From Microgenomates group bacterium (lineage in GTDB: Bacteria; Patescibacteriota; Microgenomatia; UBA10105; UBA927): 64,000 nucleotides of DNA. Where the stretch lies: positions 842,505 to 906,504 of the forward strand of contig JBAQFJ010000001.1 in NCBI GenBank assembly GCA_049287205.1, written 5' to 3'. Every line of letters begins with the position of its first letter. Position 1 is the first letter of the stretch. A program made the translations under genes and the position numbers. Below the pieces are notes generated by a model. The model made no database searches. It had not been told where the DNA came from and was given only the letters and a program-made list of their open reading frames with translations. Shown in pieces: positions 19,589-64,000 of the stretch.

Positions 19589-19618
19589 ACATATTTACAT
19601 TCTTGCTATACTGTATAT

Positions 19619-21034: not shown

Positions 21035-21149
21035 ATAGGTAATTTTAAAAAGGTATGTTTTCTATCCTATCACACGAGTCACACGACTGTCGACGGAAAT
21101 AATTTTCCTCCATACATTTTTTTAAATATCCATGCTATAGTATGACAAT

Positions 21150-22059: not shown

Positions 22060-22062
22060 TAC

Positions 22063-22509: not shown

Positions 22510-22535
22510 ATCGATACTGATTTCCTTTTTTTACG

Positions 22536-48577: not shown

Positions 48578-48578
48578 A

Positions 48579-49514
48579 TTATTTTTTTTCGAGTTTTACC
48601 CCGTCTCCCCCCAACAATACCGGTTGTGTGGCATATCCGAACTTTTTCCCGATTTCTTCCACTACACTCTGTTCTTTATGATAGCAAAGCAGAAATCCTA
48701 CGCCATCTCTTTTCCCTCCGCCACCTAAAATTTTTGTAGCACCTCCATTTTTTTCAACCGCTCGTATAAAAGGAATAACTTTTTTTCCGACTACACCCAT
48801 TCGTTCAAGCGTCTCCTCACCCTTACTCATTGCGTTTAGTAATTGTTCTTCGTTTTGATCCTTAAGAGCTATTGTGATATTTTTTGCTTGTTCTTCGTTC
48901 TGAAAAAATACGTTTCTCATTTTTCTTCTATTTTTTTCAAACCGTTTTCTTACCAGCGCCACCATATCACCTGTTGTTTCTGTTGGCCTACCAGTATTTA
49001 TCAGAAAAAAATGGTTGACTGATGATGGTATCTTTATATCCAATTGCCACATGCTCTTCAAAAATTCCAATTCCTTCCGAAACCACAATATCCCCCCCAT
49101 TGTTACAATTGTATTATCGCCGCCGGATGGATTTCCATGTTGTTTTTTTTCCGCTTCATACGCTATCTGGTTAAACAATGTGGGATTCCAAATTTTTTTC
49201 AAAAAATATGTTACTGCGGCAACGGTTGCAACGGCTGTGGCGGCGGACGATCCCAAATGAAACCCCGCCGGAATATCTGAATCAACAGTAATTCGCATAG
49301 CGGGAATGGACGAGAGATGAAAATGTTCCTTCACTTTTTGCACTGCATACAATACATATTCAGGTGATTCAGTTGAAATAACTTCCATTTTCTCAGATGC
49401 TTCGACAGCAACCCGCATACGAAGATTTATTGCGGCAAGAAGCGCAGGTGTACCATATACAACTGCATGCTCTCCCATCAAATGGATTTTTCCCGGAACG
49501 GAAACAGTAATCAT
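48579..49514 (-). CDS. mevalonate kinase-like GHMP kinase
   Basis: SVPGKIHLMGEHAVVYG. Ser/Gly-rich ATP loop. Confidence 0.75.
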   Translation of the reverse strand: MITVSVPGKIHLMGEHAVVYGTPALLAAINLRMRVAVEASEKMEVISTESPEYVLYAVQKVKEHFHLSSIPAMRITVDSDIPAGFHLGSSAATAVATVAAVTYFLKKIWNPTLFNQIAYEAEKKQHGNPSGGDNTIVTMGGILWFRKELEFLKSMWQLDIKIPSSVNHFFLINTGRPTETTGDMVALVRKRFEKNRRKMRNVFFQNEEQAKNITIALKDQNEEQLLNAMSKGEETLERMGVVGKKVIPFIRAVEKNGGATKILGGGGKRDGVGFLLCYHKEQSVVEEIGKKFGYATQPVLLGGDGVKLEKK

Positions 49515-49810
49515 ATTGGTTTTACTTTAATGCCGTATGGAATAACCCCATCTGCTGCCGCGTCAATAGTTCTGCGAACAACAGTGAATACTTTTTGGTT
49601 TGTCCTAAGTTGGTCTTTTTCCCAATCAACAACTTGCGCTGTTATTTGCATACCACCATCCAGACGCACCACTGCAAGTGGATATGGTGCCTGTTCACTA
49701 AACCCATCAGGCGGCACCCGAATCATCGTCCACGAAACAATGCGTCCCGTTTTACCGATCAGCTTTGTAAAATGTTTTTGATTACGCCAAATTTTAACAG
49801 GACTAATCAT
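49511..49810 (-). CDS. DUF35 OB-fold/Zn-ribbon protein (archaeal thiolase-HMGS complex scaffold-like)
   Basis: About 100 aa OB-fold protein between thiolase and the kinases, as in archaeal-type mevalonate clusters. Confidence 0.65.
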   Translation of the reverse strand: MISPVKIWRNQKHFTKLIGKTGRIVSWTMIRVPPDGFSEQAPYPLAVVRLDGGMQITAQVVDWEKDQLRTNQKVFTVVRRTIDAAADGVIPYGIKVKPI

Positions 49811-49814
49811 AAAA

Positions 49815-50960
49815 TTATTTTTTTAAAATATGCACTACTGCTGTTGCACCGGACCCTCCAACATTATGAGCAAGTCCCAGCCTCGCATTTTTTACCTGCC
49901 GTTTTCCACACACTCCCCTGAGTTGATTTGTAATTTCCACAATTTGTTTTACACCTGTTGCACCAATCGGATGCCCACATCCTTTCAGGCCCCCTGAGGA
50001 ATTAATAACAATATGCTCAGCAGTTCCAAGTGTGTATGCTCCTTTTTCCATGCGCATCCCCACATCACCTTTTTTTTCAAATCCCATATCTTCAATTGCT
50101 AAAATTTCCGCAATGGTAAAACAATCATGCACCTCTGCAAGATGTATATCTTTTTGTCCGACACCCGCTTGAGTAAACGCTTGGAAAGCTGCCTGTTTTG
50201 TAGCCTGAAGTTCCGTTAAATTTTTTCGTCCGGCAAGTCCCAATGTGTCTGTTGCGACGGCGGAAGCAATAATATATACGCCGGATTTTTTACTTTGGTG
50301 TTTTGTAAGAATAATTGCTGCGGCACCGTCTGTAACAGGAGAACAATCAAGAAGCTTTAAGGGATCAGCAACGCAGGAACTTTTCATTACTTGCTCTACC
50401 GTAATTGGATGCGTAAATTGTGCAAGAGCGTTTAAACTTGCATGAAAATGATTTTTAACTGCTACACTTGCGAGTTGTTGTTCTGTGGTTCCATATTTTT
50501 CCATATGACTTCTGGCAAGAATTGCATACAGCCCGGGAAATGTTGCGCCTGCCAACCGCTCTTCATTAGATCCTGCTCCCATAAGCGCGGAGCTGACAAG
50601 CTCTGGTTTATGATCTGTCATCTTCTCTACTCCTAATACACACACCGTGTCATATTGACCCGACAAAATACTCATGATACCCGCGTGCACTGCAAGACCA
50701 CCGGACGCACATGCTCCTTCCACTGTATATGCAGGAATGCCAGATAAACCTAGCTCTTCTGCAAGAAGTGCACCTAAGTGCCCCTGCATACCAAGCATTC
50801 CCGATAACATGTTTGCAACAAATAATCCTTGAATTGATTTTTTCTCTATTCCACTGTCTTTTATCGCGGCTGCAACTGCAACACTTGCCAACCATCGTGG
50901 TGATGCCGCCCACAGCTCTCCAAATTTTGTCATTCCAATTCCTGCAACAGTTATGTTCAT
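49815..50960 (-). CDS. acetyl-CoA acetyltransferase (archaeal-type thiolase)
   Basis: Thiolase fold, active-site Cys region GACASGG ... CGHPIGATG. Confidence 0.85.
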   Translation of the reverse strand: MNITVAGIGMTKFGELWAASPRWLASVAVAAAIKDSGIEKKSIQGLFVANMLSGMLGMQGHLGALLAEELGLSGIPAYTVEGACASGGLAVHAGIMSILSGQYDTVCVLGVEKMTDHKPELVSSALMGAGSNEERLAGATFPGLYAILARSHMEKYGTTEQQLASVAVKNHFHASLNALAQFTHPITVEQVMKSSCVADPLKLLDCSPVTDGAAAIILTKHQSKKSGVYIIASAVATDTLGLAGRKNLTELQATKQAAFQAFTQAGVGQKDIHLAEVHDCFTIAEILAIEDMGFEKKGDVGMRMEKGAYTLGTAEHIVINSSGGLKGCGHPIGATGVKQIVEITNQLRGVCGKRQVKNARLGLAHNVGGSGATAVVHILKK

Positions 50961-52000
50961 ACTTTGTGTGTTTGTTTTAAATACCCAAGATAATCAACGT
51001 AGGTTTTATTTGCTATTTGTTGACTCACTAACCCCCGTAGGTTTTTTCGTTTTTTTTGAATCGTTACTAATGCATCTGTTGTCTTCCAAACAAAGGCGTC
51101 GCTTCCCGCCCCTGATCCATAGGAAACCATGCAGATTTTTTTATTTGGTTTTACCACATCAAGAACCGCTGAGAGACCCATCATAGAAGAAGCAGAATAG
51201 GGATTTCCAATATGATCAACGGTAAGTGAGGCGCTAAGTTGTTCACTGGTAAACCCCAACCGTTTTGCAACCTCCCGTGGAAATTTTCCATTTGGCATAT
51301 GAAACACACAATAATCAAAATCTTTTGGCTGCAGTTTTGACTTTTGAAACAGTAGTGTCGCCGCGCCCATAACATGTGCAAAATACGCAGGTTCTCCTGT
51401 AAATCTTCCTGCATGTGATGGATATCTGATCCCGTCTCTTCGCCAAAAATCAGGTGTATCTGATGAATAAGATGTGTATGAAAGAAGTGAGGCAATTACA
51501 TTTGTACTTCCCATCAACAAGGCAGATCCCGCTGACGCTGATGTATATTCAAGTGCATCATGCGGCTTACTCTGTGCAGTATCTGCACCAATCGCCATAC
51601 CGTAGGTAATTTGTTTTGCAGACAATAACCCTGCAATCATTTGCACTCCGGCAGTGCCTGCTTTACATGCAAACTCAAGGTCTGCCGCAAGATATGACGT
51701 TCCGACTCCTAAAAGTTCACCGATAATAGTCGAGCTTGGGTTCACGGCATACGGATGACTTTCTGATCCGACAAATAACGCCTCTATTGCTGATGGTTTA
51801 CCTTTAAAATACGACAGACTTTGAAGTGCGGCCTCAAGCGCAATCGTTACCGCGTCTTCATCAACACCCGGAACTGTTTTTTCGGTTACTCCCAAGGCTC
51901 CAATAATTTCCATGGGGTTTTTCTTCCACGCAGTGGCAATATCCTCTGTGTGCACCCGATATTTGGGAATATATGTTCCATATGACACAATGCCCATCAT
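50957..52000 (-). CDS. hydroxymethylglutaryl-CoA synthase (archaeal-type)
   Basis: MGIVSYGTYIPKYRV N-terminus. HMGS/KAS-III-like fold. Confidence 0.85.
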   Translation of the reverse strand: MMGIVSYGTYIPKYRVHTEDIATAWKKNPMEIIGALGVTEKTVPGVDEDAVTIALEAALQSLSYFKGKPSAIEALFVGSESHPYAVNPSSTIIGELLGVGTSYLAADLEFACKAGTAGVQMIAGLLSAKQITYGMAIGADTAQSKPHDALEYTSASAGSALLMGSTNVIASLLSYTSYSSDTPDFWRRDGIRYPSHAGRFTGEPAYFAHVMGAATLLFQKSKLQPKDFDYCVFHMPNGKFPREVAKRLGFTSEQLSASLTVDHIGNPYSASSMMGLSAVLDVVKPNKKICMVSYGSGAGSDAFVWKTTDALVTIQKKRKNLRGLVSQQIANKTYVDYLGYLKQTHKV

Positions 52001-53148
52001 AGTTGTTTCCCCCGTGCTAATTTTTGATGTGCCCGAGCAAGTGACCCTTCTGAAAGACTTGCAAGAAGCGAAATCTCGCCTGCAAGTACGGAAGCGCCAA
52101 GAATTTCCACAAATTTATTTTTATTTTTTTCTCCGTAGCACCCAAGAATTTGCAACGCCTCTTTTTGCGCACCAAGCCCTGTTCCTCCACCCACAGTTCC
52201 CACCATAAGATCAGGCATATACACACTCATATACAACTCTTTTTTGCGTACTTCTGCCGTCGTGACTCCAATGCTACATTCTCCAACGTGTGCAATATCC
52301 TGACCTGTTGCCAAAAAAACTGCCGCAAGCACATTTGCAAATTGCGCATTATTTCCCATTGATCCGCTCATAACACTTCCCAACATGCATTTAGAAATCC
52401 AAACATCATAGAATTTTTGCGCTGTTGTTTTCAACGTTTCCTGTAATACTTCTTCAGTCAACACAACTTCTGCCCACACTTTTGCTCCTCGTCCTTCTAT
52501 AAAATTCATCCATGATGGTTTTTTGTCCGTACAATAATTTCCGGAAAGTGCAACACATGAAATATGTGTCTGTTCTTGAATATACCGAGCGATTGCTTCT
52601 GTTGCGATAGTTACCATGTTGAGTCCCATTGCGTCTTTCGTATCATATTGAAACCGAACATACCGATATTGGCCAACGCCTCGGGAAAATATCTTAGTAA
52701 GTGTTATGTGATTGGAGGTAAACGCTGCAATTTTTTGCATTGCAGCCAAATGTGTATCCAAAAAGATACTTAACCTATCATTTTCAGCAAGACTTCCCAC
52801 GTAAAATACCGGTCCGCGCGTTGCGCCGACACTATACGAATCAACAATTGCACCACCACTTTGTGCAATGGCTTTACATCCCCGATTCACTGATGCTACG
52901 AGCGCGCCCTCTGTGGTTGCAAGCGGAATATATGCGGAGTGTTTTTTTGAGGATTTAATCGTTTGATACACAATGGGACCCGCAATACCAAGCGGCACTT
53001 GTGTTACTCCAATCATATTTTCGCAATGTCTCGTTGATGCAACAAATTCATCTATTGCACCCTCACTTATAGCGGACAATGGAATCTGTAATTCATGTTC
53101 CAGTTTTCTTCGCCTAACTGCAACTGCATCGTTTTTATCAAGCGTCAT
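51997..53148 (-). CDS. hydroxymethylglutaryl-CoA reductase catalytic domain (class I-like)
   Basis: DAMGLNMV and GTVGGGT motifs. Confidence 0.85.
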   Translation of the reverse strand: MTLDKNDAVAVRRRKLEHELQIPLSAISEGAIDEFVASTRHCENMIGVTQVPLGIAGPIVYQTIKSSKKHSAYIPLATTEGALVASVNRGCKAIAQSGGAIVDSYSVGATRGPVFYVGSLAENDRLSIFLDTHLAAMQKIAAFTSNHITLTKIFSRGVGQYRYVRFQYDTKDAMGLNMVTIATEAIARYIQEQTHISCVALSGNYCTDKKPSWMNFIEGRGAKVWAEVVLTEEVLQETLKTTAQKFYDVWISKCMLGSVMSGSMGNNAQFANVLAAVFLATGQDIAHVGECSIGVTTAEVRKKELYMSVYMPDLMVGTVGGGTGLGAQKEALQILGCYGEKNKNKFVEILGASVLAGEISLLASLSEGSLARAHQKLARGKQL

Positions 53149-53151
53149 ATA

Positions 53152-53769
53152 TTAAATAAATGGAATTTTAAATATTCCTAAGTGGTACATGCCAATGCTA
53201 TAAAATAGCATACTTCCTCCGACAACACCAAATACAGCGATAATACGCCATAAATCTAATTTCATCCCAAACCGTATGGTCAAATACGTCAACATCGCTT
53301 TCCAAAAAAATAATACTGAGGAAAAAATTAAAAATATTGCGCTGAATACCATACCTAATGGCCTACCGGTTCTTGGTGGAGGAAACAACACATACAAAAT
53401 TGATGTACCCAAAAACCATAAAAGCGTTGGAAGTAATGTGTACCCCCATGAAAGAGCAAGAACACGAAGACTTCCTTTTCCACCCATACATTTTCCAACA
53501 ATGAAAAGAAGCGATACTATCACGGCATACGTCACCACCACAGAAAGCGCGATGAGGATAAATTGTTTGGTTAAGACAAAGGGTCTGAATGCAGCAGTTT
53601 TTACCAATGACGCAATCGCAAAATAACAGGAAAGCAACACCCCAAGCGGAACAAGTTCCCATAAAGAACCGTGGTGAACAATACGTCTATATGCTTCGTA
53701 TGGTTTTGTCGCCAGTCCTACACTTGACCTGAAAAACGCAACACATCCGATAAGGAGTGAACCCGTCAT
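53152..53769 (-). CDS. polytopic membrane protein (Yip1-like, hypothetical), last gene of mevalonate operon
   Basis: 5 TM helices. 3-nt gap to the HMGR gene. Confidence 0.4.
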   Translation of the reverse strand: MTGSLLIGCVAFFRSSVGLATKPYEAYRRIVHHGSLWELVPLGVLLSCYFAIASLVKTAAFRPFVLTKQFILIALSVVVTYAVIVSLLFIVGKCMGGKGSLRVLALSWGYTLLPTLLWFLGTSILYVLFPPPRTGRPLGMVFSAIFLIFSSVLFFWKAMLTYLTIRFGMKLDLWRIIAVFGVVGGSMLFYSIGMYHLGIFKIPFI

Positions 53770-53794
53770 ACTGAATTAGTCGTACAAATTCGCT

Positions 53795-53859
53795 AAAACC
53801 CTCGCCCGCCTGCATCGCTTATGCGAAGCATTGCAGGCAGGCCCCGCCTGCTCTCGAGG
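53795..53859 (-). terminator. GC-rich intrinsic terminator hairpin after sigma/anti-sigma pair
   Basis: Minus strand CCTCGAGAGCAGGCGGGGCCTGCCTGCAATGCTTCGCATAAGCGATGCAGGCGGGCGAGGG followed by TTTT. Confidence 0.45.
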
Positions 53860-53876
53860 CAAGTTGTAGATGGAGA

Positions 53877-54107
53877 CTAAAAACCCTTTTGTAATAAGGT
53901 CACGATCGTTGTTATAGAAGGACCAAACCACAATACAAGCACAATGACCAACAATGCACTAATGATTACGAGTGCGGGAATAGGCATGATTTTCAGCTGA
54001 TGGGTGATGCGTTTATACAATCCGGTAAACGGCCCCACTGTCTGTGGAGACAATTCCATTGTTTCTTTCCATCTGGATACCAGCTTATGATAATTAGCTT
54101 TGGACAT
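53877..54107 (-). CDS. putative anti-sigma factor (single-TM small protein)
   Basis: 76 aa with one TM helix. Overlaps the 3' end of the ECF sigma gene. Confidence 0.4.
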   Translation of the reverse strand: MSKANYHKLVSRWKETMELSPQTVGPFTGLYKRITHQLKIMPIPALVIISALLVIVLVLWFGPSITTIVTLLQKGF

Positions 54108-54633
54108 GGTGTTTTACAAACGCTTTTTTTGCCCGAAACAGCATAGATTCAGCGCCTTTGAGAGTAATTGCTAATTTACGCGCAATTTCAGCAACCGGCA
54201 TGTTTAAAATATATCTGGCGTATAAGACTGTTTTATATTGCGGAATGAGTTTATTCAACGTTTTATGCAACTCTTCCTTCAATACTCGCTCATCAAGCGC
54301 AGCTTCAGGATTTAACAGTGGAGACACTAATTCTTCAATCTCAGGCATTTGGGAAAATACAAGTTGTTTTATCTTCTTTTTCCGATAAAAATCAATAATC
54401 TTATGATTGCAGATGGATTGCAAAAATGTACGAAGGTTGCAATTCCCCCGAAAATCACGGAGCGCATCTAAAAATGCATACAGCGTTTCCTGCATGATGT
54501 CCTCAACATCATGCGGATTCTGCACTTTCATCTGAATAAACCGTTTTAACGGCGGGGTGTACGTATGGTAAAACTCATACAGCGCCCGTTCATCCCGAGC
54601 CAGAATTCGCTGCAATAACTCAGATTCTTCCAT
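54094..54633 (-). CDS. ECF-type RNA polymerase sigma factor
   Basis: Sigma-70 region 2 (DVEDIMQETLYAFLDAL ... IIDFYRKKK) and region 4 HTH (LNMPVAEIARKLAITLKGAESMLFRAKK). Internal ATG 54633 preferred. Confidence 0.75.
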   Translation of the reverse strand: MEESELLQRILARDERALYEFYHTYTPPLKRFIQMKVQNPHDVEDIMQETLYAFLDALRDFRGNCNLRTFLQSICNHKIIDFYRKKKIKQLVFSQMPEIEELVSPLLNPEAALDERVLKEELHKTLNKLIPQYKTVLYARYILNMPVAEIARKLAITLKGAESMLFRAKKAFVKHHVQS

Positions 54634-54722
54634 ATATATGCTGTAACTATACCATGGAACGAAAAACCAAGGCAATAAAGCCAAGCCTTGTGTTTACCTG
54701 CAATATTTCGTACACTTTTCCT

Positions 54723-55043
54723 ATGGAACGCATTTTCGCGCAAGATTCGGTCGACATAAAAGACATTTTTCAACCTGCAGGTTCATTTGCGACACTTGGA
54801 GATCTTGTTTCTGTCCTACTAAAGAATGCGTTCACTATTGCAGGGGTTATTTTTTTCGTTTTGTTGATTTTTGGCGGATTTACATTTATAGTATCAGCAG
54901 GTGGTGGCGATGCAAAAAAGGCAGAACAGAGCAAAAAGACCATTACAGCAGCTGCCACAGGGCTTGTTCTCATTTTTGCATCCTATTGGATCATTCAACT
55001 CATTGAAATTATTACAGGTGTACCAATTTTAAATTTGAACTAA
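54723..55043 (+). CDS. VirB2/TrbC-like pilin-like helical-hairpin protein (array member 1)
   Basis: LLIFGGFTFIVSAGGGDAKKAEQSKKTITAAATGLVLIF core. ATG 54723 preferred over track start 54654. Confidence 0.45.
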   Translation: MERIFAQDSVDIKDIFQPAGSFATLGDLVSVLLKNAFTIAGVIFFVLLIFGGFTFIVSAGGGDAKKAEQSKKTITAAATGLVLIFASYWIIQLIEIITGVPILNLN

Positions 55044-55044
55044 T

Positions 55045-55419
55045 ATGCATTTTTTAGAAAAAGTTTTTGCTGAAGGTGCAACCGATATCATTGGGACGGT
55101 CACCAATCCTATTACTCCAAAATATGGAGGTCTTGAAACAGGACTTATCCCTTTTTTCAGCAATGTGCTTCGGTTAGTATTTGCGGTTGCAGGTGTGTAT
55201 GCCTTCATTAACCTTATCCTTGCAGGATACGGCTACATGAGCGCAGGTGGAGACGCAAAAGCAGTTTCCAAAGCATGGGACAAAATCTGGCAAACACTTA
55301 TTGGACTTGCCATCATCGCAGGATCATTTGTCATTGCCGCATTGTTTGGTTACCTCATCTTTGGTGATCCGATGTTTATGTTAAAACCAACAATTTATGG
55401 CCCAGGTGTAACACAATAA
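55045..55419 (+). CDS. VirB2/TrbC-like pilin-like helical-hairpin protein (array member 2)
   Basis: LILAGYGYMSAGGDAKAVSKAWDKIWQTLIGLAII core. Confidence 0.45.
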   Translation: MHFLEKVFAEGATDIIGTVTNPITPKYGGLETGLIPFFSNVLRLVFAVAGVYAFINLILAGYGYMSAGGDAKAVSKAWDKIWQTLIGLAIIAGSFVIAALFGYLIFGDPMFMLKPTIYGPGVTQ

Positions 55420-55420
55420 T

Positions 55421-55795
55421 ATGAAAACGCTTGCAGACGTACAATTACAACAAATAGGTGAAGGCGGCGGCGGTTTAGGAACTTTCGGCGGACAAACTTT
55501 TACAGCTGACAGTGCCCTCTCATCATTTACCCATACGATATCCGCAATCATCGGTCTTTTAACAGCTGTAGCTGCAGTGTGGTTTCTTGTACAAATTACC
55601 TTGGGTGGCATCAGCTGGATAACTGCTGCAGGAGAAAAATCAAAACTTACAGAGGCACGTGACAAAATCACTCATGCGTTTATTGGACTTATCATTGTCG
55701 TTGCAGGCTGGGGAATTCTCGCGCTTGCAGGACAATTCTTTGGATGGGACACCATATTATTACCGTCGTCTGTCGGAGAATTAATTAAATTCTAA
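55421..55795 (+). CDS. VirB2/TrbC-like pilin-like helical-hairpin protein (array member 3)
   Basis: ITLGGISWITAAGEKSKLTEARDKITHAFIGLIIV core. Confidence 0.45.
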   Translation: MKTLADVQLQQIGEGGGGLGTFGGQTFTADSALSSFTHTISAIIGLLTAVAAVWFLVQITLGGISWITAAGEKSKLTEARDKITHAFIGLIIVVAGWGILALAGQFFGWDTILLPSSVGELIKF

Positions 55796-55800
55796 TTTCT

Positions 55801-56142
55801 ATGAACCGCATACTTGCACAAATCACCAATCCGGTTCTTCCAGCCAGTCTTGGCACAGGAACTGTGGAACAAGGCGGAACAGTTATCGGCAAACTCATCA
55901 GCAACATCGTTGGACTGTTGTTTATGTTTTCTTTTCTTTTAACACTACTCTATTTAATCATGGGTGGTCTTCAGTGGATCACAGCAGGCGGAGACAAAAC
56001 ACACTTGGAATCAGCGCGTAATAAAATTACAAATGCAATCGTCGGACTTATTATAGTTGCCGCCGCGTATGCGATATTCACCCTTGTCGGAGAATTTTTG
56101 GGACTTGATGTTGCAAACCTGCAAATTCCTTCTTTTAAGTAA
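55801..56142 (+). CDS. VirB2/TrbC-like pilin-like helical-hairpin protein (array member 4)
   Basis: LIMGGLQWITAGGDKTHLESARNKITNAIVGLIIV core. Confidence 0.45.
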   Translation: MNRILAQITNPVLPASLGTGTVEQGGTVIGKLISNIVGLLFMFSFLLTLLYLIMGGLQWITAGGDKTHLESARNKITNAIVGLIIVAAAYAIFTLVGEFLGLDVANLQIPSFK

Positions 56143-56289
56143 AAAGGCGGATTGATTGTAGATTTGCCACACGTACCGTATAATTAACATAGTATAAATT
56201 ATCTTCCTCAGCCCATGAAGGTTGTTGGAAGATTCAAGAAATTGATTTACTCGTACTAACTCGTAAGCAATTTCTAGAGGAGGTGACGT

Positions 56290-56622
56290 ATGTTAGAAAA
56301 ACTATTCGCAGCAGATTTGACAATTGCACAACCAAGTAATGTTAAAATTACTGACGTTGGACAACTTATCAGTGCAGCAGTTGGCACAATCCTTATTCTT
56401 GCGGCACTTCTCGCATTTATATTTTTGATCTTAGGCGGTATTCAGTGGATTACTTCCGGTGGAGACAAAGCAGCTATGGAAGCGGCACGGAATAAGATTA
56501 CACATGCAATCGTCGGACTTATTATTGTCGGAGCAGCATGGGCAATCATGATGTTGGTACAGAATTTCTTAGGCGTCAGCATCATTGGTTCACAAGGAGT
56601 TACACTCCCGAAACCATTCTAA
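56290..56622 (+). CDS. VirB2/TrbC-like pilin-like helical-hairpin protein (array member 5)
   Basis: LILGGIQWITSGGDKAAMEAARNKITHAIVGLIIV core. GGAGGTG RBS. Confidence 0.45.
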   Translation: MLEKLFAADLTIAQPSNVKITDVGQLISAAVGTILILAALLAFIFLILGGIQWITSGGDKAAMEAARNKITHAIVGLIIVGAAWAIMMLVQNFLGVSIIGSQGVTLPKPF

Positions 56623-56647
56623 TTTTTTGAAAATATATTGTATATTC

Positions 56648-56672
56648 AAAAGCCCCCTTTGGGGGGTTTTTG
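56648..56672 (+). terminator. intrinsic terminator
   Basis: AAAAGCCCCCtttGGGGGGTTTTT directly after the array-member-5 stop. Confidence 0.6.
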
Positions 56673-56699
56673 ATTTCTGGTATACTTATCAGTACACAT

Positions 56700-57050
56700 A
56701 TGCGTCTACTTGCAGCAACAAATTGGCAAAACCTTGAAAAAGCGAGTCCAACGGACAGCACTGCTGATGTTGCGACCATCGGATCACTCGTTACTGTATT
56801 TTCTAATGTCATTCAAGCGGTCACTGCGCTCGCGGGTATTGTGCTATTTATTATGCTTGTGACAGGCGGCTTCACGTTTCTTTTCTCAGGCGGCGATCAG
56901 AAAAAGTTGGAAAAGGCAAAAGGAACACTGACAAGCGCAATCATCGGACTTGTTGTTTTGATATGCAGCTATCTCATCCTTATGCTTATCCAAAAAGCGA
57001 CAGGAACAACGGCAGATCTTACTAAATTTCAATTGAATATCGGACAGTAG
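56700..57050 (+). CDS. VirB2/TrbC-like pilin-like helical-hairpin protein (array member 6)
   Basis: LVTGGFTFLFSGGDQKKLEKAKGTLTSAIIGLVVL core. ATG 56700 preferred because the track start overlaps the terminator. Confidence 0.45.
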   Translation: MRLLAATNWQNLEKASPTDSTADVATIGSLVTVFSNVIQAVTALAGIVLFIMLVTGGFTFLFSGGDQKKLEKAKGTLTSAIIGLVVLICSYLILMLIQKATGTTADLTKFQLNIGQ

Positions 57051-57088: not shown

Positions 57089-58504
57089 ATGAAACGGGTG
57101 TTTCTCTCATTATTTTTAAGCTTCGTTACCTCTTTTTGTTTCCTCTCGCCTATCCACGCTTCCTGGGTAGATGAAGGATATGACGAAGCCATGAAGGCTG
57201 CGGAAAACGGCGATGTAAATTCAGCAGCATATATCTCAAACGCTGACAATAACACAAAACTAAATCTTGTAAGACAAGTTTTTGGCGCAGTGGAAGGATT
57301 AACCGTCATGAAAGGCGACTTGAATGAACCCTACGCCAAGAAAATGAATAACCAAAGCGCAATATCAGGATTGTCTACATATATCGGCTACATGTACACC
57401 AATCCTCCAGCTTCCACATATGCATTCGTCCAAGATATGGGGCAAACACTCGGATTTATTCCAAAACAAGCCTATGCACAAGGTATAGGTTTTTCAGGTC
57501 TTTCTCCCCTGCTTCCAATTTGGAAAATGTTTCGCAATATTAGCTATGCCATTCTTGCTCTTGTTATGGTTGCTATTGGATTTATGGTCATGTTCCGAAA
57601 AAAAATTGACCCAAAAACTGTTGTGACTGTACAAAATGCACTTCCAAAAGTTGTGGTTACACTCATTCTTATCACTTTTTCTTATGCAATTGTGGGTCTT
57701 ATGATTGATTTAATGTATATCGTTCTCTATGCAGCGCTACAATTAATCGTCACATCAGCTCCAAGTGGCATGTTTGATGCAGATCATGTTTCAGTATTTA
57801 CGAGCAGTAGCTTTGGCGCAGTGTGGAAAGGAATGTTTGGAGGATTTGAAACCTTCCCAATAATGATTAACAGTATCATGCCGGGAGAAGCATCTTGGAT
57901 TACTAAATTAACTCTTGCTACTATTTTCAGCGGCGGCGTGGCTGGGGTACTCAGTATTTTAGTTGCCCTTATTATGGCTATTGCATTTCTTTTTGGTGTT
58001 GTTCGATTATTTTTTATGCTGCTATCCGCATATATTCAAATTATTGTTGCAGTACTTATAGGACCCATTCAAATTTTGTTAGACGCAGTTCCTGGTGGAC
58101 AAGGATTTTCAGGATGGATAAAAAACCTTCTATCCAATCTCGTCGTATTTCCTATAACATCTGTTATGCTAACTCTTGCATATTTTTTAATTAAATCAGC
58201 AGATAAAACCTGGACGCCACCACTACTTGGCTCAGGTTCAAGTGGTATCAGTTCACTCATAGGATTAGGATTTCTTTTTATCATTCCAAACACAGTCAAA
58301 GGGCTCCAAGAAGCACTCAAGGCAAAACCAATGGTTAATGCTGGACTTGGGGCAATTGCAGGACCAATGGGTTCAGGCGTAGGACAGGGCATGCAACTTG
58401 TTTACCAAGGGGCTATGATCAAAGAAGGACTATTTGCAAGAAAACCAAACACAAATACATTGCAAAGTACCATTGATTCAGCAAAAGCGGCTGAAAAAGG
58501 TTAA
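57089..58504 (+). CDS. VirB6/TrbL-like polytopic membrane protein (putative)
   Basis: Cleavable signal peptide and about 100-aa periplasmic domain. Five or six TM segments. C-terminal tail. Topology typical of T4SS VirB6/TrbL. No sequence signature verified. Confidence 0.4.
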   Translation: MKRVFLSLFLSFVTSFCFLSPIHASWVDEGYDEAMKAAENGDVNSAAYISNADNNTKLNLVRQVFGAVEGLTVMKGDLNEPYAKKMNNQSAISGLSTYIGYMYTNPPASTYAFVQDMGQTLGFIPKQAYAQGIGFSGLSPLLPIWKMFRNISYAILALVMVAIGFMVMFRKKIDPKTVVTVQNALPKVVVTLILITFSYAIVGLMIDLMYIVLYAALQLIVTSAPSGMFDADHVSVFTSSSFGAVWKGMFGGFETFPIMINSIMPGEASWITKLTLATIFSGGVAGVLSILVALIMAIAFLFGVVRLFFMLLSAYIQIIVAVLIGPIQILLDAVPGGQGFSGWIKNLLSNLVVFPITSVMLTLAYFLIKSADKTWTPPLLGSGSSGISSLIGLGFLFIIPNTVKGLQEALKAKPMVNAGLGAIAGPMGSGVGQGMQLVYQGAMIKEGLFARKPNTNTLQSTIDSAKAAEKG

Positions 58505-58508
58505 CACT

Positions 58509-61500
58509 TCATTTCTTCTTCTTCTCATCATTTATGGACTCCATCGTTGCTAATGTAACGGTTGCTACTGGTATCACCCACCAGTATTTCCGAGGCAATC
58601 CATATAATACTCTCCATGGCATTGTCGAGTGCGTTTCCCTCCGTAACTTATTCAATAAATGAGGAGAATTGTCAAATAAACCAGCTCGTTGAATTTTATT
58701 CAGAAATGCTGCCATTTTAAATTCATCCCACGCATTGCCCTCTGGCCCCTGGAACCGAACAGAAAGTGAAACGAGCTCAGAAAGACTCAATGGGACGTCT
58801 TTAATTTTTCTTCCAAAAAGTTTATTTTTGTCCGCCCATTTTTCAAGAGCATTTACCCCACCCCTCTTCTTTTTCCCAATCTCGCCAAGTAAATGAAACG
58901 GCTGTAAATGATCGATTTCTACTTCACCAATATTTTTTAACAACGATGTCATACCCGGAATCCAACCAATAGGATTTAAAAATCTTGTGCCTCGATTTTC
59001 ATTAAATAAGCAAATTACTTTTAATAAACTATAGGTGGCTTGTTCCGCTCCATCACGGGTTGAGTAATTGTTAATGGCTGATTTATATTCTTTCAATTTT
59101 TTAACCAGATCATCAAATTTTTCCGGGCCCAAAAGATCAGCATCAGTAATAATTTGAAGCATTGTGTCGCGAGCCTGTGCCATATTCATCATATCTCTCC
59201 CACGACGATCAAGCGCAGCAGTACCAAGTTTAGCAAAATTCGAATCTGACCAATCAATCCCTGACAAAGCCAACGATATTGGGAATTTACTTTTAGACCA
59301 CTGAGGAATTACCTTTTTTGCCTCCGCTTGAACATCTAGGAGTACGGCTCGGAACAATTCCTTTTTCCCTGCGGTCACTGGACCTAATTTATCCATAAAT
59401 GGAGCAATCACTTCATTAAAATCATCTACCTTACTCAAATTTATTGTTCTCTCAAGGTACTTCTTATCATGCCACAATTTCGTTTGTCCTTTTGCTAATA
59501 ATTCTTGAAACAGTCGTTGATCTTTCACGCTTAGACCGTGACGTGCAAACACTTCATTCATTCGTTTTCCAGCCATCACTTCAATATAAGTAAGCGGCAT
59601 ACGATCAACCATTTTTTCTAAAATCCGCTGTCGAGCTGTCGCATTAGGTGCAATAAGTAGCTGTAACCCTAATGCAGCATTTTCCCAAGCCTCAGGCGAA
59701 AGCTTTGATTCAATCATTGCATGCTGAATTTGTGTAAGTAATCCTTCATCCAGTCGCCAAGCCGTCGCATCAAAATCTGCTCCTGTTCTCATAAAACCAG
59801 ACCCAAGCATTTCACTAAAAGAAATACCCATATCCTGTTCCGCAACTTCCATAAATCGGCGCAGACGCAGCGCTTCTGGATTTTCCTCTCCTTCCCAAGC
59901 TGAGAACCAATCTTTCGTGGTTGTTAACTTGGTCCCCTCTGGATATTGCGATGTTCGCAACATCGAAAGGACACGTTCTCCCATCGCGCCTCCAGTTTTA
60001 AATCTATATGCAAACAGTTCTGGATTGATAATCCGTTGAATATCCTCCATAAAAGGAGATACCATAACATATTTTCCGGATTGGTTATCTGTATATTTAT
60101 AGGATTTTAATTCCACATTTCTTGGACGAGTCACCATGAATGCTCCTCTGTCTACCATATATCCGGATCCAATTGTATGCAGACGAGCTGCCCATATTGC
60201 GTCTCTTAATTTCCAATGAATTTTTGCCAAATCATCTTCACTCATATTTTTCTGAACAGATAGATATTCTTCCATCATGTCAAACACTCGTGCCTCAAGT
60301 GGAGAAAACTCTTGATATCGCTCAACAGTAGACATTTTCGTCGGATCTTCTAATCGATCTCTTTCCTTAAGCCGGGTTTGTTGTTCAGCTTTTTTTGCGA
60401 TAAAATCTGGAAGTCTTTCCAATTCCTGCAGCTGGTTAGGTGTCAACTTATCCAAAGGAATTGATTTCAACTCTTCGAGATGGTGCGTAGCTTCAATCCA
60501 AGAAATACGCGCTTCACTGTACACAAGCACATCGTCGTCGTATAATCCAACCCCAAAGCCCACTGTATCAATGCCATCTTTTACCGTAGAGTTCATTTTA
60601 GTTTTGAATGCGTCTAATTCTGCTTTTTGCCCGAGTGCAAGATTTATTATTTGATTCCCTTCAAGTTTTCCTGCAATCGTTGCCTCCATATATCGACAAT
60701 ATAACTCATCAAAATTTAACACTTCATTCTTTTTAATAAGCAATCGTTCTTGAAGCCACTCCGGAATTGTTTGAAGATCCACATTACTCAAAATAAATTG
60801 TAATCTTTCGTTATACACCCCTTGTTTATCTCCTAACAACATTGGCGTCGCTTCATTCATAAATCCAATTGCTAATGAGGAATATTCATTATAATTGGCG
60901 TATGAATCCAAATCTGCACCCAATAATTTTCGGTAGGCCAATAACTTATCTTTAATATCACCCGGTATATAAGCCAACGCTTTTAATGTATATTCTTGTT
61001 TTCCACGATCTGACCATGCCATTTCAAATGGAACTTTTATTACTTTTGCTTTTTCTCCAAATATCCATTCAAGCGCTGTTTTAAATCGATCATATTTTGT
61101 CTGATCAGGTAGTTCTGGATGTTTTTGCTCTCTTCCGACTCCATAAATGTCCGCAATAAAGTCAGAAAAAAACTCTTTTATTTTTTCTAAATCTCCAGAC
61201 AGTAATAATTCTTGTTCTCTTGGATTAAATCCATATAAATTTAACGGTTCGCTGTCTGGATGCTGTGTAATTTTTTGCTGTTGCTCTTTAGATAATTGCG
61301 ACCAAACAACATCTCTTCTCTCTTGTGACAAATTTTTGTCGTTTTGCAACTCTTTCACTCTTCTGTTTGTCCTGTCGATATATTTTTTCAACTCCTCTTT
61401 CTTAACCTTAAAAAATTTCCTTTTCCCCTCATCATCAATCTTTACTCCATCTCCTTTTGTCATTTCTTTTGCAATATCCTCAAGATATCTAATTTCTTGA

Positions 61501-62246
61501 TCAAGCGTTATGTCTCCACGAAAATCAATTCTTTCCTGATATTCTTGTAAAAATCCATGTAAGTCTGAACTCATTCCACCACCATCTAACATTTCATCGT
61601 ATAGACGGAATCCCCGAAGCGAATATGTTAAATCTTCATCATTCAAGGGGAATGCGACGTTTTTATTTGTTTCTTTCAAATCCCGTATGTGCAAAATTGC
61701 CTTATTTACTAAGTTGATTTCTTCGGCTCTTGCCTTTACGTTGTCGCTCATTGACGCAGAAAGCTCTGACGTCAAATGAAAAAGAACATTGGGATCTTTA
61801 GCAAGATCTTCTGGTAACAAAGAAACCTTCTCAACAAATTTCGCGGCAGCTGCGCTATTTTCTATTTCCGCGGGTGTAAATGTCGAACCTAACCAATCAG
61901 GTTTATCCTTTGCCAAATTCCAAGCCGTTTCACACCGTTTATGCATCGTTTCAAATGAAGATAAATTTTTATAACGCAACGTTTCATTCAATTCTTTCAT
62001 CGCCATTGAAACATTGCCCTGATTAACATTAACTATTTCTGTGAGTTGCTTCGCTTTTAGCTGTTCTTGTTGAATGTATGTTTCATCACTTTCAATTGGA
62101 GTATGCTTTCTTTCAGCTAATTTCTGAATTTTCTCTTTCAGATATTCAGGCTTAACCTTCTCAATTTTTTTTGGTTCAGCGTCTGCGATTGCGGCGACCC
62201 ATTTTGACACTATCTCCGGAAGTGGTTGTTGACTACGTTCTGACAT
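58509..62246 (-). CDS. very large uncharacterised protein (1245 aa)
   Basis: Single uninterrupted ORF. No signal peptide. C-terminal hydrophobic segment WWVIPVATVTLATM. No motif recognised. Confidence 0.5.
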   Translation of the reverse strand: MSERSQQPLPEIVSKWVAAIADAEPKKIEKVKPEYLKEKIQKLAERKHTPIESDETYIQQEQLKAKQLTEIVNVNQGNVSMAMKELNETLRYKNLSSFETMHKRCETAWNLAKDKPDWLGSTFTPAEIENSAAAAKFVEKVSLLPEDLAKDPNVLFHLTSELSASMSDNVKARAEEINLVNKAILHIRDLKETNKNVAFPLNDEDLTYSLRGFRLYDEMLDGGGMSSDLHGFLQEYQERIDFRGDITLDQEIRYLEDIAKEMTKGDGVKIDDEGKRKFFKVKKEELKKYIDRTNRRVKELQNDKNLSQERRDVVWSQLSKEQQQKITQHPDSEPLNLYGFNPREQELLLSGDLEKIKEFFSDFIADIYGVGREQKHPELPDQTKYDRFKTALEWIFGEKAKVIKVPFEMAWSDRGKQEYTLKALAYIPGDIKDKLLAYRKLLGADLDSYANYNEYSSLAIGFMNEATPMLLGDKQGVYNERLQFILSNVDLQTIPEWLQERLLIKKNEVLNFDELYCRYMEATIAGKLEGNQIINLALGQKAELDAFKTKMNSTVKDGIDTVGFGVGLYDDDVLVYSEARISWIEATHHLEELKSIPLDKLTPNQLQELERLPDFIAKKAEQQTRLKERDRLEDPTKMSTVERYQEFSPLEARVFDMMEEYLSVQKNMSEDDLAKIHWKLRDAIWAARLHTIGSGYMVDRGAFMVTRPRNVELKSYKYTDNQSGKYVMVSPFMEDIQRIINPELFAYRFKTGGAMGERVLSMLRTSQYPEGTKLTTTKDWFSAWEGEENPEALRLRRFMEVAEQDMGISFSEMLGSGFMRTGADFDATAWRLDEGLLTQIQHAMIESKLSPEAWENAALGLQLLIAPNATARQRILEKMVDRMPLTYIEVMAGKRMNEVFARHGLSVKDQRLFQELLAKGQTKLWHDKKYLERTINLSKVDDFNEVIAPFMDKLGPVTAGKKELFRAVLLDVQAEAKKVIPQWSKSKFPISLALSGIDWSDSNFAKLGTAALDRRGRDMMNMAQARDTMLQIITDADLLGPEKFDDLVKKLKEYKSAINNYSTRDGAEQATYSLLKVICLFNENRGTRFLNPIGWIPGMTSLLKNIGEVEIDHLQPFHLLGEIGKKKRGGVNALEKWADKNKLFGRKIKDVPLSLSELVSLSVRFQGPEGNAWDEFKMAAFLNKIQRAGLFDNSPHLLNKLRRETHSTMPWRVLYGLPRKYWWVIPVATVTLATMESINDEKKKK

Positions 62247-62300: not shown

Positions 62301-63035
62301 TCATTCCTCAATTTTAAATGGAAGATGCTGTTTAAAATCAGTGTTGTCTTTTCTTTGTATTATCTTTTTTTCTTTCGCATCTGTTGCGTTTCCGTTTTCC
62401 AATACCTCATCTGCCTCACTATATGTAAACCCTAATTCATTTTCATCCGTCTGCTCCGGCCACAAATCTGCTGATGGTGGCTTTGTGATAATCACTTCAG
62501 GAATCAGTAGATATTTGGCGAGCTCAAACACTTGTGTTTTGTATAAATGCACAATCGGCTCTACATCACTTGCCTCATCGCCAAACCGGGTAAAATATCC
62601 AAGTTCATGTTCACTTTTGTTTTCCGTCCCCATGACGAGTGCATGGTGTTTTTTTGCATGATCAAATAGGTAAGTCATACGAACACGCGCCATGATGTTT
62701 CCTTTTCTTATACGATCCATAAATGGATCGATTCTGACAATTTGATCTACTGTAGGTTTAATATCAATCCGTACAATATGACTTATGGGAATTTTTATCT
62801 TCTCGACAAGCTCCATCGCGTCTATGACTCCTTTTGTATTTAATGGTCCATACGGCAACAGTATCGGGTAAACGTGTTCTAGCCCTAATGCGCGAACCGC
62901 AAGGACACAGGAAATAGCTGAGTCAACACCACCTGATAGACCGATCACAGCGTCTGTAAATCCGGCTGTTTGAAATGATTGTTTAATAAATGCGATGATG
63001 CGTTCGACTTCTTGCTCTGGATTAATCTGTTTCAT
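62301..63035 (-). CDS. nadE: NH3-dependent NAD+ synthetase
   Basis: PP-loop SGGVDSA motif. Confidence 0.85.
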   Translation of the reverse strand: MKQINPEQEVERIIAFIKQSFQTAGFTDAVIGLSGGVDSAISCVLAVRALGLEHVYPILLPYGPLNTKGVIDAMELVEKIKIPISHIVRIDIKPTVDQIVRIDPFMDRIRKGNIMARVRMTYLFDHAKKHHALVMGTENKSEHELGYFTRFGDEASDVEPIVHLYKTQVFELAKYLLIPEVIITKPPSADLWPEQTDENELGFTYSEADEVLENGNATDAKEKKIIQRKDNTDFKQHLPFKIEE

Positions 63036-63586
63036 ACATATAATTTGTGTTCTTTAATATATTCACTGACACCTTTTGGCACAAAGTTTTCAATGGATAG
63101 CCCACGTTTTACCCGCTCCCTGATTTTTGTGGAAGAAAGATTGGAGGCAATGAGTGCCGTGTTTGACAACACACGCATATGTTCATAAACCGGTTCATTC
63201 GGATACCCATAGCGCGGGAAAATAATAAAAGGCAATTGTTTTAACAGTTCTTTATATTCTCCCCATAAATGAAACGTTGCGAGCTGATCAGAGCCAATAA
63301 TGAATGTGTATTCATGTTCTTTTGGAAGGTGTGGTAACAAATGAATTGTTTTCCCATCTAGTTTATTATCAATTTCAATCGTGGATATCTTTGTGCGTGC
63401 AAGCGTCAAACACTGCGTCATCGCAAGTCTGTCTACAACAGACGCAACGGGTTCATGAAAACTCTGCCCATAATTTGGCACAAACCATATCTCGTCAAAC
63501 CCGCCAAAATCCAAACACTGCTGGGCGATGAATATGTGTCCTATATGTGGCGGATTAAATTTTCCTCCGAAGAGTCCTATCTTCAT
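63032..63586 (-). CDS. nadD: nicotinate-nucleotide adenylyltransferase
   Basis: MKIGLFGGKFNPPHIGHI (HxGH nucleotidyltransferase motif). Confidence 0.85.
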   Translation of the reverse strand: MKIGLFGGKFNPPHIGHIFIAQQCLDFGGFDEIWFVPNYGQSFHEPVASVVDRLAMTQCLTLARTKISTIEIDNKLDGKTIHLLPHLPKEHEYTFIIGSDQLATFHLWGEYKELLKQLPFIIFPRYGYPNEPVYEHMRVLSNTALIASNLSSTKIRERVKRGLSIENFVPKGVSEYIKEHKLYV

Positions 63587-63609: not shown

Positions 63610-64000
63610 TTACGACTTCTCAATTGTTTTAGTATAGCGCTCACGGCTAGACCTGATCACCTTTTCCCTGCTTTGGTTGTGGCTTCTTGGAAGCGGTAGA
63701 GTTGTGGCCGAAAATGGGCTTGACGTGTGATTATCAATCGAAAGCTTTAACACGATCTGATAATTGCCAAGTTGCACCAATTCTTCTTCTTTATATTTGA
63801 GCCCGAACTCACGGGCAAGCGGTCTGGCATCCGTGGCTCCCACACAAAACGAAATGATAGATCCTGCATTTCCAAAAATAGCATTTTGCACATCCTCATC
63901 GATTTGCCCGATATATTGGTTGGCAAGTGTCAGATTCAACCGATATTTTCTTGCTTCAGAAAGAATTTTGATAAATGAACTCGTTGCAAAATTTTGGAAT
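63610..64000 (-). CDS. FtsK/HerA/VirD4-superfamily ATPase, C-terminal fragment (CDS continues beyond window end)
   Basis: Frame stays open to position 64000. ARKYRLNLTLANQYIGQ ... AIFGNAGSIISFCVGATDARPLAREFG resembles the C-terminal RecA-fold segment of FtsK and T4SS coupling/VirB4 ATPases. Confidence 0.45.
   Translation of the reverse strand, partial: FQNFATSSFIKILSEARKYRLNLTLANQYIGQIDEDVQNAIFGNAGSIISFCVGATDARPLAREFGLKYKEEELVQLGNYQIVLKLSIDNHTSSPFSATTLPLPRSHNQSREKVIRSSRERYTKTIEKS

Follow-up and report, generated by a model that had tools for sequence, protein, structure and literature searches.

BIG, a large predicted all-alpha protein encoded in a type IV secretion system-like gene cluster of Microgenomates-type bacteria

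Gene order at the BIG locus

The 64-kb stretch of the 1.02-Mb contig JBAQFJ010000001.1 from the metagenome-assembled genome of a Microgenomates group bacterium that was analyzed here (the window) carries on its reverse strand, at positions 58509 to 62246, an open reading frame (ORF) of 1,245 codons for which, together with its product, we use the name BIG. An earlier note on this DNA had counted BIG among the largest genes of the window; it is in fact the longest ORF, followed by ORFs of 806, 734, and 698 aa. BIG is a fixed, single-copy part of a chromosomal type IV secretion system (T4SS)-like cluster of the ultrasmall Microgenomates-type bacteria of the candidate phyla radiation (CPR). In the window its stop codon lies 4 nt from that of a convergent gene for a 471-aa polytopic membrane protein, which follows an array of pilin genes, and nadE, nadD, and a fragment of a VirD4-like coupling ATPase gene are found upstream (Table 1), as the note had placed them.

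Conserved linkage to T4SS genes was found throughout the related loci (designated L001 to L019), in agreement with the association proposed in the same note: wherever enough flanking sequence is available, BIG, the pilin array, and the polytopic gene occur together, including around members with only 22 to 30% amino acid identity and in sister subfamilies. BIG converges on the polytopic gene, with the pilin array behind the latter, in the window and in L001/L005, L002, L003, L004, L006, L007, L008, L009, L011, L017, and L018, while in L015 and L019 the contig ends after BIG and the polytopic gene that converges on it. The two close relatives (66% and 57% identity) have a gene order identical to that of the window. 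A VirD4-like gene lies upstream of BIG on the same strand in the window, L001, L002, L006, L009, L017, L018, and L019. The L001 cluster encodes on one strand an M23 peptidase, a VirB4-like ATPase (DUF87/AAA_10/P-loop_TraG), a TraC-like protein, and a PrgI-like protein, and on the opposite strand, in order, the VirD4-like protein, NadD, NadE, and BIG; this order recurs in the species representatives L006, L008, and L009, whose BIG proteins are only 26 to 37% identical. In L011 (22% identity), from which nadDE is missing, BIG converges on a gene for a 497-aa protein that is preceded by six pilin genes. The sister-subfamily loci L017 and L018 likewise contain BIG, the convergent polytopic gene, and a six-pilin array, the order in L018 being dnaN, M23, VirB4, TraC-like, and PrgI-like genes, then VirD4, a toxin-antitoxin pair, and BIG, which faces a 475-aa polytopic gene, an AAA_14 gene, and six pilin genes, again with no nadDE. 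The convergent pairing of BIG and the polytopic gene is universal, with gaps of approximately 3 to 45 nt. These gene orders identify as constant partners of BIG the polytopic gene, which is convergent in every case, and the pilin array, with VirD4 as a usual third.

Table 1. Coordinates of BIG, its parts, and neighboring genes in the window
Feature	Coordinates	Strand	Remarks
ECF-type sigma factor, 76-aa single-TM protein, and Yip1-family protein	53152..54684	-	divergent from pilin array
Six VirB2-like T4SS pilin genes (two-TM hairpins)	54654..57050	+	PF18895 and TM hairpins
Convergent 471-aa polytopic membrane protein	57089..58504	+	signal-like N terminus and ~5 TM segments
BIG	58509..62246	-	ATG start; 1245 aa; 143 kDa; pI 6.1; all-alpha; unnamed Microgenomates-type family
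Polar C-terminal tail of BIG, ESINDEKKKK	58512..58541	-	acidic, then basic; after YWWVIPVATVTLATM
C-terminal hydrophobic helix of BIG, YWWVIPVATVTLATM, aa 1221-1235	58542..58586	-	preceded by PRK; candidate short tail anchor or docking helix
Helical body of BIG, ~aa 466-1205	58632..60851	-	motifs PFMEDIQRIINPELF, DATAWR, DRRGRD, GWIPG, GNAWDE
Constant N-terminal module of BIG, ~aa 55-465	60852..62084	-	motif KPDWLG...SAAAAKFVEKVSLLPEDLAKDPNVLF; delimited with hhalign
nadE	62301-63035	-	upstream of BIG, same strand
nadD	63032-63586	-	upstream of nadE, same strand
VirD4-like coupling ATPase, C-terminal fragment	63610..64000	-	identified from translation; cut by window edge
ECF, extracytoplasmic function; TM, transmembrane.

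The BIG family

In a word-indexed homolog search, the full-length proteins numbered only three: the query (100%) and the relatives at 66% and 57% identity. The description of BIG as an orphan did not survive when 1.84 billion cluster representatives were searched exhaustively with a HMMER profile, which yielded 109 representative clusters, 98 of them at E values of <1e-10 and 70 at <1e-30, mostly over the full length. Aligned members span 1,078 to 1,590 aa, and the overall size range of this all-alpha, solenoid-like family is 1,000 to 1,590 aa. All named sources of homologs are CPR bacteria (Microgenomates group, Patescibacteria group, and Candidatus Gottesmanbacteria). The public metagenome-assembled contigs of L005, L007, L008, and L009 are titled "uncultured Gammaproteobacteria bacterium" although they carry the CPR T4SS cluster; these are almost certainly mislabelled bins.

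No known family was recognized in BIG. The single sequence matched nothing in Pfam, NCBIfam, PHROGs, PADLOC, or the sequences of the PDB, where only coiled-coil and helical noise was returned (E value of 0.014 or worse), in keeping with the observation that the protein has no detectable motif. Thirty-seven diverse family members had no credible domain in Pfam or NCBIfam, and a 63-sequence family profile found nothing in the PDB sequences beyond noise of the same kind and at the same limit. Homology to a housekeeping family was therefore absent from the single sequence, the 37 members, and the profile. A tblastn search with BIG of 72,556 plasmids found no match. With more than 100 clusters at 50% identity and no Pfam entry, the family is an addition to the parts list of the CPR T4SS.

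Predicted fold and three-part architecture

An AlphaFold2 model of residues 46 to 1245, built from a 63-sequence alignment, has a mean predicted local distance difference test (pLDDT) score of 87.8 and a predicted TM-score (pTM) of 0.76 and consists essentially of helices, apart from one small hairpin. A Foldseek search of the PDB with this model gave a best E value of 0.09 and TM-scores of ≤0.1, with only generic helical or solenoid likenesses. On the strength of these scores and of the negative Foldseek result, the fold of BIG is confidently predicted and is without a recognizable solved relative; its predicted class is an irregular alpha-solenoid or helical rod. Self-BLAST revealed no internal repeats in BIG, and no Pfam repeat family was found in BIG or its relatives. 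The allele of L019 (P0084), modeled from a six-sequence alignment with modest confidence (pLDDT, 68; pTM, 0.55), is also composed entirely of helices. Its PDB likenesses by Foldseek were limited to subthreshold solenoids of the importin-beta/CRM1 (karyopherin), CAND1, FANCI, and huntingtin types (best E value, 3e-3; TM-score, ~0.08); with E values above 1e-3, TM-scores of ≤0.1, and no sequence repeats, this is a resemblance of class and not homology. No toxin or enzyme fold is visible in either of the two allele classes modeled, that of the window and, at modest confidence, that of L019.

Matches that covered only the N-terminal part of the main profile defined at least three or four sister subfamilies, among them the P0049 group (~985 aa), the P0084 group (~1,150 to 1,220 aa), and the P0103 group (~1,340 to 1,385 aa). 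Profile-profile comparison of the main family with these three by hhalign gave probabilities of 99.3 to 99.9% and E values of 4e-20 to 4e-32, the homology being limited to the first ~300 to 430 residues and the aligned range ending at about aa 362 to 465 of BIG. The following helical body of ~750 aa is conserved within the main family and not alignable to the sister subfamilies. The range of the hhalign matches, together with the tails present in all subfamilies (see below), defines an architecture of three parts: an N-terminal module that is constant, a helical body that diverges, and a tail that is conserved. Within the main family, conservation is highest at aa 721 to 750 (PFMEDIQRIINPELF), aa 811 to 840 (DATAWR), aa 991 to 1020 (DRRGRD), and the C-terminal end. 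The residues invariant across the family are E734, R738, F749, G756, R831, R1014, D1018, and P1097; no His, Cys, or Tyr is invariant, and there is thus no hint of a catalytic center.

Comparison with the defining features of known families showed BIG not to belong to the VirB6, VirB1, relaxase, polymorphic-toxin, or diversity-generating retroelement (DGR)-target families. VirB6/TrbL proteins, including extended VirB6 and TraG-N, have at least five TM segments, whereas BIG has no segment that reaches the TM cutoff and no Pfam (PF04610) or fold match. A conjugative relaxase of the MOB families would have the catalytic motifs and fold of the HUH, Rep_trans, PD-(D/E)XK, or tyrosine-recombinase type; BIG has no Pfam or NCBIfam match and no invariant His or Tyr, and its model is all-alpha save for the one small hairpin. 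BIG contains neither the SLT, lysozyme, CHAP, or M23 domain nor the export signal of a VirB1-like cell wall hydrolase. Among short motifs, a Fic-like GPEGNAW lacks the catalytic His of HPFxxGNGR, and an SLT-like LGLQ and a terpene synthase-like DDD have no support from fold or profile.

The C-terminal helix and tail

Near its C terminus BIG contains a hydrophobic helix (YWWVIPVATVTLATM) that had been described as an anchor-like segment. The segment exists and is highly conserved; in hydrophobicity it is weak, its Kyte-Doolittle mean being 0.86 over 19 residues, below the 1.6 (19-residue mean) at which TM segments were called, and 1.53 over 15 residues. The absence of a signal peptide was borne out, since there is no N-terminal hydrophobic segment and hence no Sec-type signal. 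The blocks over aa 1201 to 1245 rank among the most conserved of the family (2.28 and 2.09 bits). All subfamilies have an uncharged run of 12 to 19 residues near the C terminus (median of 15 in the main family and ~12 in two subfamilies), followed by an acidic/basic tail of 5 to 24 residues. The C-terminal signature, [RK][RK]YWW-VVPxATIAxA-xQxxEEEKK, is universal. The tail of most relatives reads EEEKK, behind which a run of Gly and a final His are frequent, and that of the window reads ESINDEKKKK; the last residue is His in 35 of the 63 main-family members, and a GGG run occurs within the last 15 residues in 9 of the 63. Several members (e.g., P0007, P0014, P0017, and P0030) have GGGGG(H)H after EEEKK, while the subgroup of the window ends in KKKK.

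Conserved small residues together with Pro, as in VPVATIALA, are typical of helix-helix packing. The C-terminal position of the segment and the missing N-terminal signal fit a tail anchor. The charges flanking YWWVIPVATVTLATM, with RK before and an acidic stretch after, fit an N-in orientation. The segment is, however, short, and with its hydropathy below the cutoff, this makes membrane spanning doubtful.

Hypervariability and allele classes

BIG had been called fast-evolving, and both the identities per gene and the comparison of DNA show it to be the fastest-diverging gene of the cluster. L019 is from a genome very close to those of the window and L001. Amino acid identities of its proteins to their orthologs in the window or L001 reference are 94% for VirB4-like, 87% for VirD4-like, 85% for NadD, 79% for NadE, 51% for the polytopic (VirB6-like) protein, 48% for the M23 peptidase, and 25% for BIG. 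At the DNA level, the window and L019 are 81.6% identical across the end of VirD4, nadD, and nadE. No similarity is detectable across BIG in its entirety or across the adjoining ~340 nt of the convergent gene, which encode its C-terminal ~110 aa; past that point, identity is again 76 to 78%. A further hypervariable tract was observed in the M23 peptidase (~730 aa), where the sequences encoding the C-terminal half (L001, 280 to 1288; L019, 176 to 1250) have no DNA similarity, next to a VirB4 that is 94% identical at the protein level.

The more distant L006, L008, and L009 (VirB4, 76 to 79% identical) carry the allele class of the window, while the nearest genomes, L019 and L017, carry others. 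Allele class is therefore incongruent with background relatedness, which implies either cassette exchange or ancient alleles kept across lineages. The C-terminal ~110 aa of the polytopic protein are 67 to 72% identical in company with the same BIG allele (L001) and 17 to 40% identical with different alleles (L018 and L019), against 72 to 92% for the TM core. This covariation may reflect coadaptation or a mere recombination tract.

Neighboring genes

The intergenic distances are 54 nt between BIG and nadE and 23 nt between nadD and the VirD4-like gene, while nadE and nadD overlap by 4 nt; VirD4-like, nadD, nadE, and BIG probably form one transcription unit. Promoter and terminator scans around BIG returned nothing better than in shuffled sequence. 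For the VirD4-like fragment the DNA identity is 77 to 82%; the ortholog in L001 is full length (728 aa) and contains DUF8128, DUF87, and TrwB_AAD_bind. The nadD/nadE pair (window, 62301 to 63586; L001, 8623 to 9941; L019, 8643 to 9931) sits between VirD4-like and BIG in most loci, L018 and L011 excepted. The short or overlapping gaps of these genes suggest a single operon, and there is no obvious reason for an association of NAD salvage genes with a T4SS.

The earlier note had spoken of a pilin/VirB6-like operon; for the polytopic neighbor, VirB6-like is a label of position and topology only. An 11-sequence profile of the protein matched nothing in Pfam or the PDB, no VirB6 family or structure included, and a relation to VirB6, TrbL, or PrgH is not detectable by sequence. 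Its TM core (aa 120 to 200) is extremely conserved (mostly 72 to 92% identity), and a loop (aa 200 to 280) is variable. Three of the six window pilins were scanned against PF18895 (T4SS_pilin); two passed the gathering score (29.4 and 29.1 bits), and one missed it (21.5 bits). PF18895 also marks the orthologous arrays of related loci. The fifth pilin gene of the window (56290 to 56622, forward strand) is 72 to 95% identical in most related loci, falling to 57% in L011, which is the most distant; for the remaining five, identities are mostly 43 to 65%; the fifth may encode the major structural pilin and the others variable ones.

The sigma factor, 76-aa protein, and Yip1 trio is syntenic in most of the related loci that reach past the pilin array. 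The 76-aa single-TM protein is anti-sigma-like, and the trio are possible regulators of the pilin and T4SS genes. Beyond Yip1, L001 and L003 carry mevalonate genes (HMG-CoA reductase, synthase-like, thiolase, and GHMP kinases), to which approximately 46200 to 53150 of the window corresponds by synteny and a GHMP kinase match; at the same position (19361 to 22955), L017 has methylerythritol phosphate (MEP) pathway genes (LytB, Dxr, IspD, and IspF), an isoprenoid pathway swap between related CPR genomes. Immediately upstream of BIG in L017 (7725 to 9922) and L018 (9323 to 9959) are inserted toxin-antitoxin pairs (NTase/HEPN and NTase/HepT) and a Fic-domain gene, and the polytopic gene is separated from the pilins by an inserted AAA_14/DUF4143 ATPase gene (L017, 14478 to 15716; L018, 15471 to 16694). 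The BIG cassette appears to be bordered by hot spots of insertion. Elsewhere in the window are a 41-nt direct repeat (85% identity; 2776 to 2816 and 3945 to 3985, 1.2 kb apart) and a 147-nt near-tandem repeat (73%; 21333 to 21479 and 21492 to 21638), both unrelated to BIG.

Comparison with known systems

The cluster matches the Patescibacteria MPF-FATA-like T4SS, as set out in the portion of PMC12102498 on T4SS gene content, in having VirB4, TrsD/TraC-like, PrgI/VirB3-like, and VirD4-like proteins, an M23 hydrolase, and three to six pilins, in being chromosomal, and in lying near dnaN in L018. The same portion of that study reports pilin arrays to be abundant and recognizable VirB6 to be scarce in Microgenomatia, and its gene repertoire section mentions no large conserved protein in the slot of BIG. 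BIG would be an additional, lineage-specific component of this system.

The essential T4SS proteins SEML1_0011 (998 aa) and SEML1_0013 (1,088 aa) of the saccharibacterium S. epibionticum have VirB6/permease-like TM regions and ARM-repeat helical domains (PMC10633639, Table S2). Like BIG, these extended VirB6-like proteins are large, were unannotated, belong to a CPR T4SS cluster with an adjoining six-pilin array, and have long helical hydrophilic regions, which in the Saccharibacteria proteins are attached to the membrane; unlike them, BIG lacks a polytopic VirB6/permease-like domain at the N terminus and has just a single short hydrophobic helix at the C terminus. No relative outside the BIG family was found by HMMER among the 1.84 billion representatives, and the two are likened by description and not by structure; as helical platforms at the channel, they may have analogous functions.

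CagA of the Helicobacter pylori cag T4SS is an ~130-kDa, mostly helical, nonenzymatic protein of unique fold that is encoded in the T4SS island, is highly polymorphic, and has a basic C-terminal signal. BIG resembles it in size, helicity, encoding in a T4SS locus, polymorphism, and basic C terminus; the two differ in that there is no sequence or fold similarity and in that CagA, which lacks a hydrophobic tail, is directed at eukaryotic cells and depends on the chaperone CagF. Known T4SS signals are C-terminal and are positively charged for VirD4-type recognition or Glu-rich (E-block) for DotM (PMC12981334). Transmembrane and tail-anchored T4SS effectors share with BIG a moderately hydrophobic segment in the last ~65 residues, a charged C terminus, which in BIG is a candidate signal, and the lack of a Sec signal (PMC12981334), but what defines these effectors is that their translocation has been demonstrated (in Legionella, Coxiella, Brucella, and similar organisms), whereas BIG is known from sequence, and its segment is shorter (12 to 19 residues) and conserved within the subfamily. 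By analogy, we rate BIG as a lineage-specific T4SS component or substrate that would work most like the helical extension of an extended VirB6 or a CagA-type scaffold effector.

Possible roles of BIG

The earlier note had suggested that proteins of this kind are often substrates, effectors, or structural tethers; the present data narrow BIG to an alpha-solenoid-like protein that shows no enzyme or toxin fold in the two allele classes modeled. The role that we prefer, tentatively and short of an even chance, is that of a resident, membrane-tethered alpha-solenoid accessory subunit, a specificity factor or adaptor near the polytopic protein and VirD4. Having no signal peptide, BIG would be made in the cytoplasm; the short C-terminal hydrophobic helix would hold it at the membrane, N-in, beside the convergently encoded polytopic protein and the VirD4-like coupling ATPase. 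The constant ~400-aa N-terminal module would be the docking part, and the ~750-aa helical body, which is rapidly replaceable, would offer a large surface for contacts with other proteins and so determine what is bound or let through by the machine. BIG would fill the role taken in Saccharibacteria T4SSs by the helical, ARM-like extensions that are fused to VirB6-like proteins. The membrane tether, the partnership with the VirB6-like and VirD4-like proteins, and the adaptor role are what we infer here. Three considerations incline us slightly to a subunit: the universal single-copy presence in a fixed slot; the tail sequence conserved in the main family, with its RK-YWW interface residues and small-residue packing motifs; and the precedent of ARM-like domains on the essential SEML1_0011 and SEML1_0013 (PMC10633639). 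The pairing of BIG with the polytopic gene where nadD and nadE are missing (L011 and L018) and the covariation of the polytopic C terminus with the BIG allele support a T4SS subunit further. Several observations weigh on the other side. Hypervariability and allele classes that do not track relatedness are unusual for a resident cytoplasmic scaffold, and the hypervariability fits a host-exposed or translocated factor better; the C-terminal helix, with only 12 to 19 residues (~12 in two subfamilies), stays below the TM cutoff; the covariation could come from a recombination tract running into the adjacent gene; and, as no homolog outside the BIG family was detected among the 1.84 billion representatives, BIG is not a universal CPR T4SS subunit.

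It is possible, though doubtful, that BIG is instead a dedicated translocated substrate, a CagA-like scaffold effector whose conserved C-terminal element, the moderately hydrophobic helix with its Glu-rich/Lys-rich tail, would be recognized by the VirD4-like protein. Delivery would be into or onto the host bacterium, where the tail may anchor in the membrane and the variable body would bind host-specific targets. A substrate would agree with the position of BIG on the same strand downstream of the VirD4-like gene, with its missing signal peptide, and with its standing as the fastest-evolving gene of the cluster, in which whole-gene alleles are replaced between near-identical backgrounds and classes ignore the relatedness of the flanks. 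Large nonenzymatic effectors such as CagA exist. The highly conserved C-terminal end is where T4SS signals lie, and the moderate hydrophobicity is that of directly secreted transmembrane effectors, among which tail-anchored ones are known (PMC12981334); moreover, the T4SS of S. epibionticum, which lacks a recognizable relaxase, has been proposed to export proteins (PMC10633639). Yet invariable presence in single copy, a fixed slot, and a constant size are more often traits of machine parts than of effector repertoires, and the sequence of the helix is conserved in the main family (RKYWWVVPVATIALA), while known T4SS signals are conserved only physicochemically. The EEEKK/ESINDEKKKK tail, which is conserved behind the helix in all subfamilies, resembles VirD4-type and E-block signals (PMC12981334) by pattern alone, no CPR signal having been defined, and translocation is not evidenced for any CPR T4SS. 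A bolder form of export, which we consider rather unlikely, makes BIG the host range determinant of Microgenomates episymbiosis: a hypervariable alpha-solenoid would be exported by the pilus-bearing T4SS, and its C-terminal helix would be planted in the partner membrane as a "translocated receptor/tether." The ancient allele classes would then be kept in, or exchanged between, lineages because each fits a different host.

That BIG has nothing to do with the T4SS, being a cytoplasmic scaffold of other function in a vertically inherited syntenic block of T4SS genes, nadDE, sigma factor, Yip1, and isoprenoid genes, is improbable. No T4SS family matches BIG, and synteny in most loci extends over the entire region, from nadD/nadE to sigma/Yip1 and the isoprenoid genes, so linkage alone cannot single out the T4SS. 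Where the order breaks, however, BIG stays with the polytopic gene and the pilins and not with nadDE (absent from L011 and L018), other breaks being the toxin-antitoxin/Fic insertions of L017 and L018 and the replacement of mevalonate genes by MEP genes in L017; in addition, the tight convergent pairing is universal, and the hypervariable tract covers both BIG and the polytopic gene. We consider it very improbable that BIG is a polymorphic toxin or exchangeable payload, with a constant N-terminal trafficking domain, swapped C-terminal toxic domains, and immunity genes. Its ~400 constant N-terminal residues, followed by sequence that cannot be aligned between subfamilies, have the form of such a protein, and toxin-antitoxin modules and a Fic gene adjoin BIG in some loci. 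However, sequence searches with 37 members and fold searches with two allele classes disclosed no toxin or enzyme domain, the bodies are all-alpha, solenoid-like, and of similar length, the C-terminal tail architecture is conserved, unlike toxin tips, and the gene after BIG is that of the polytopic T4SS protein and not a small immunity-like gene. DGRs are frequent in CPR genomes, but hypervariability generated by a DGR, or by recombination of internal repeats as in CagY, is already largely refuted and receives almost no credence from us: no template/variable direct repeat pair within the 64-kb window involves 58509 to 62246, BIG has neither tandem repeats nor internal repeats by self-BLAST, no reverse transcriptase family occurs among the called genes of related loci, and the divergence is that of a whole gene and not of a C-terminal patch. 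The remaining probability falls to something not considered here.

Significance for the Patescibacteria T4SS

The surrounding T4SS and the pilin arrays are already known. In the literature examined, no description was found of the BIG family, of the fold and three-part architecture of its members, or of their cassette-like hypervariability. The Patescibacteria T4SS is the only T4SS known to be essential for the growth of its owner, which takes place on a host, and neither its cargo nor its mode of host recognition is known (PMC10633639, PMC12857230, and PMC12102498). To the Microgenomatia form of this machine, the present analysis adds a conserved 143-kDa component whose fold is novel. Its gene is the most rapidly diversifying of the cluster, with allele classes swapped between otherwise near-identical clusters, as is expected of an element that meets the partner cell or selects cargo. 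BIG and its 40-residue C-terminal element are concrete candidates for studies of translocation, membrane insertion, and partner binding. Were BIG the host range determinant outlined above, a candidate substrate and a specificity factor would be at hand for the first time for a CPR T4SS; more generally, BIG may be the part that adapts the T4SS machine to particular partner cells.

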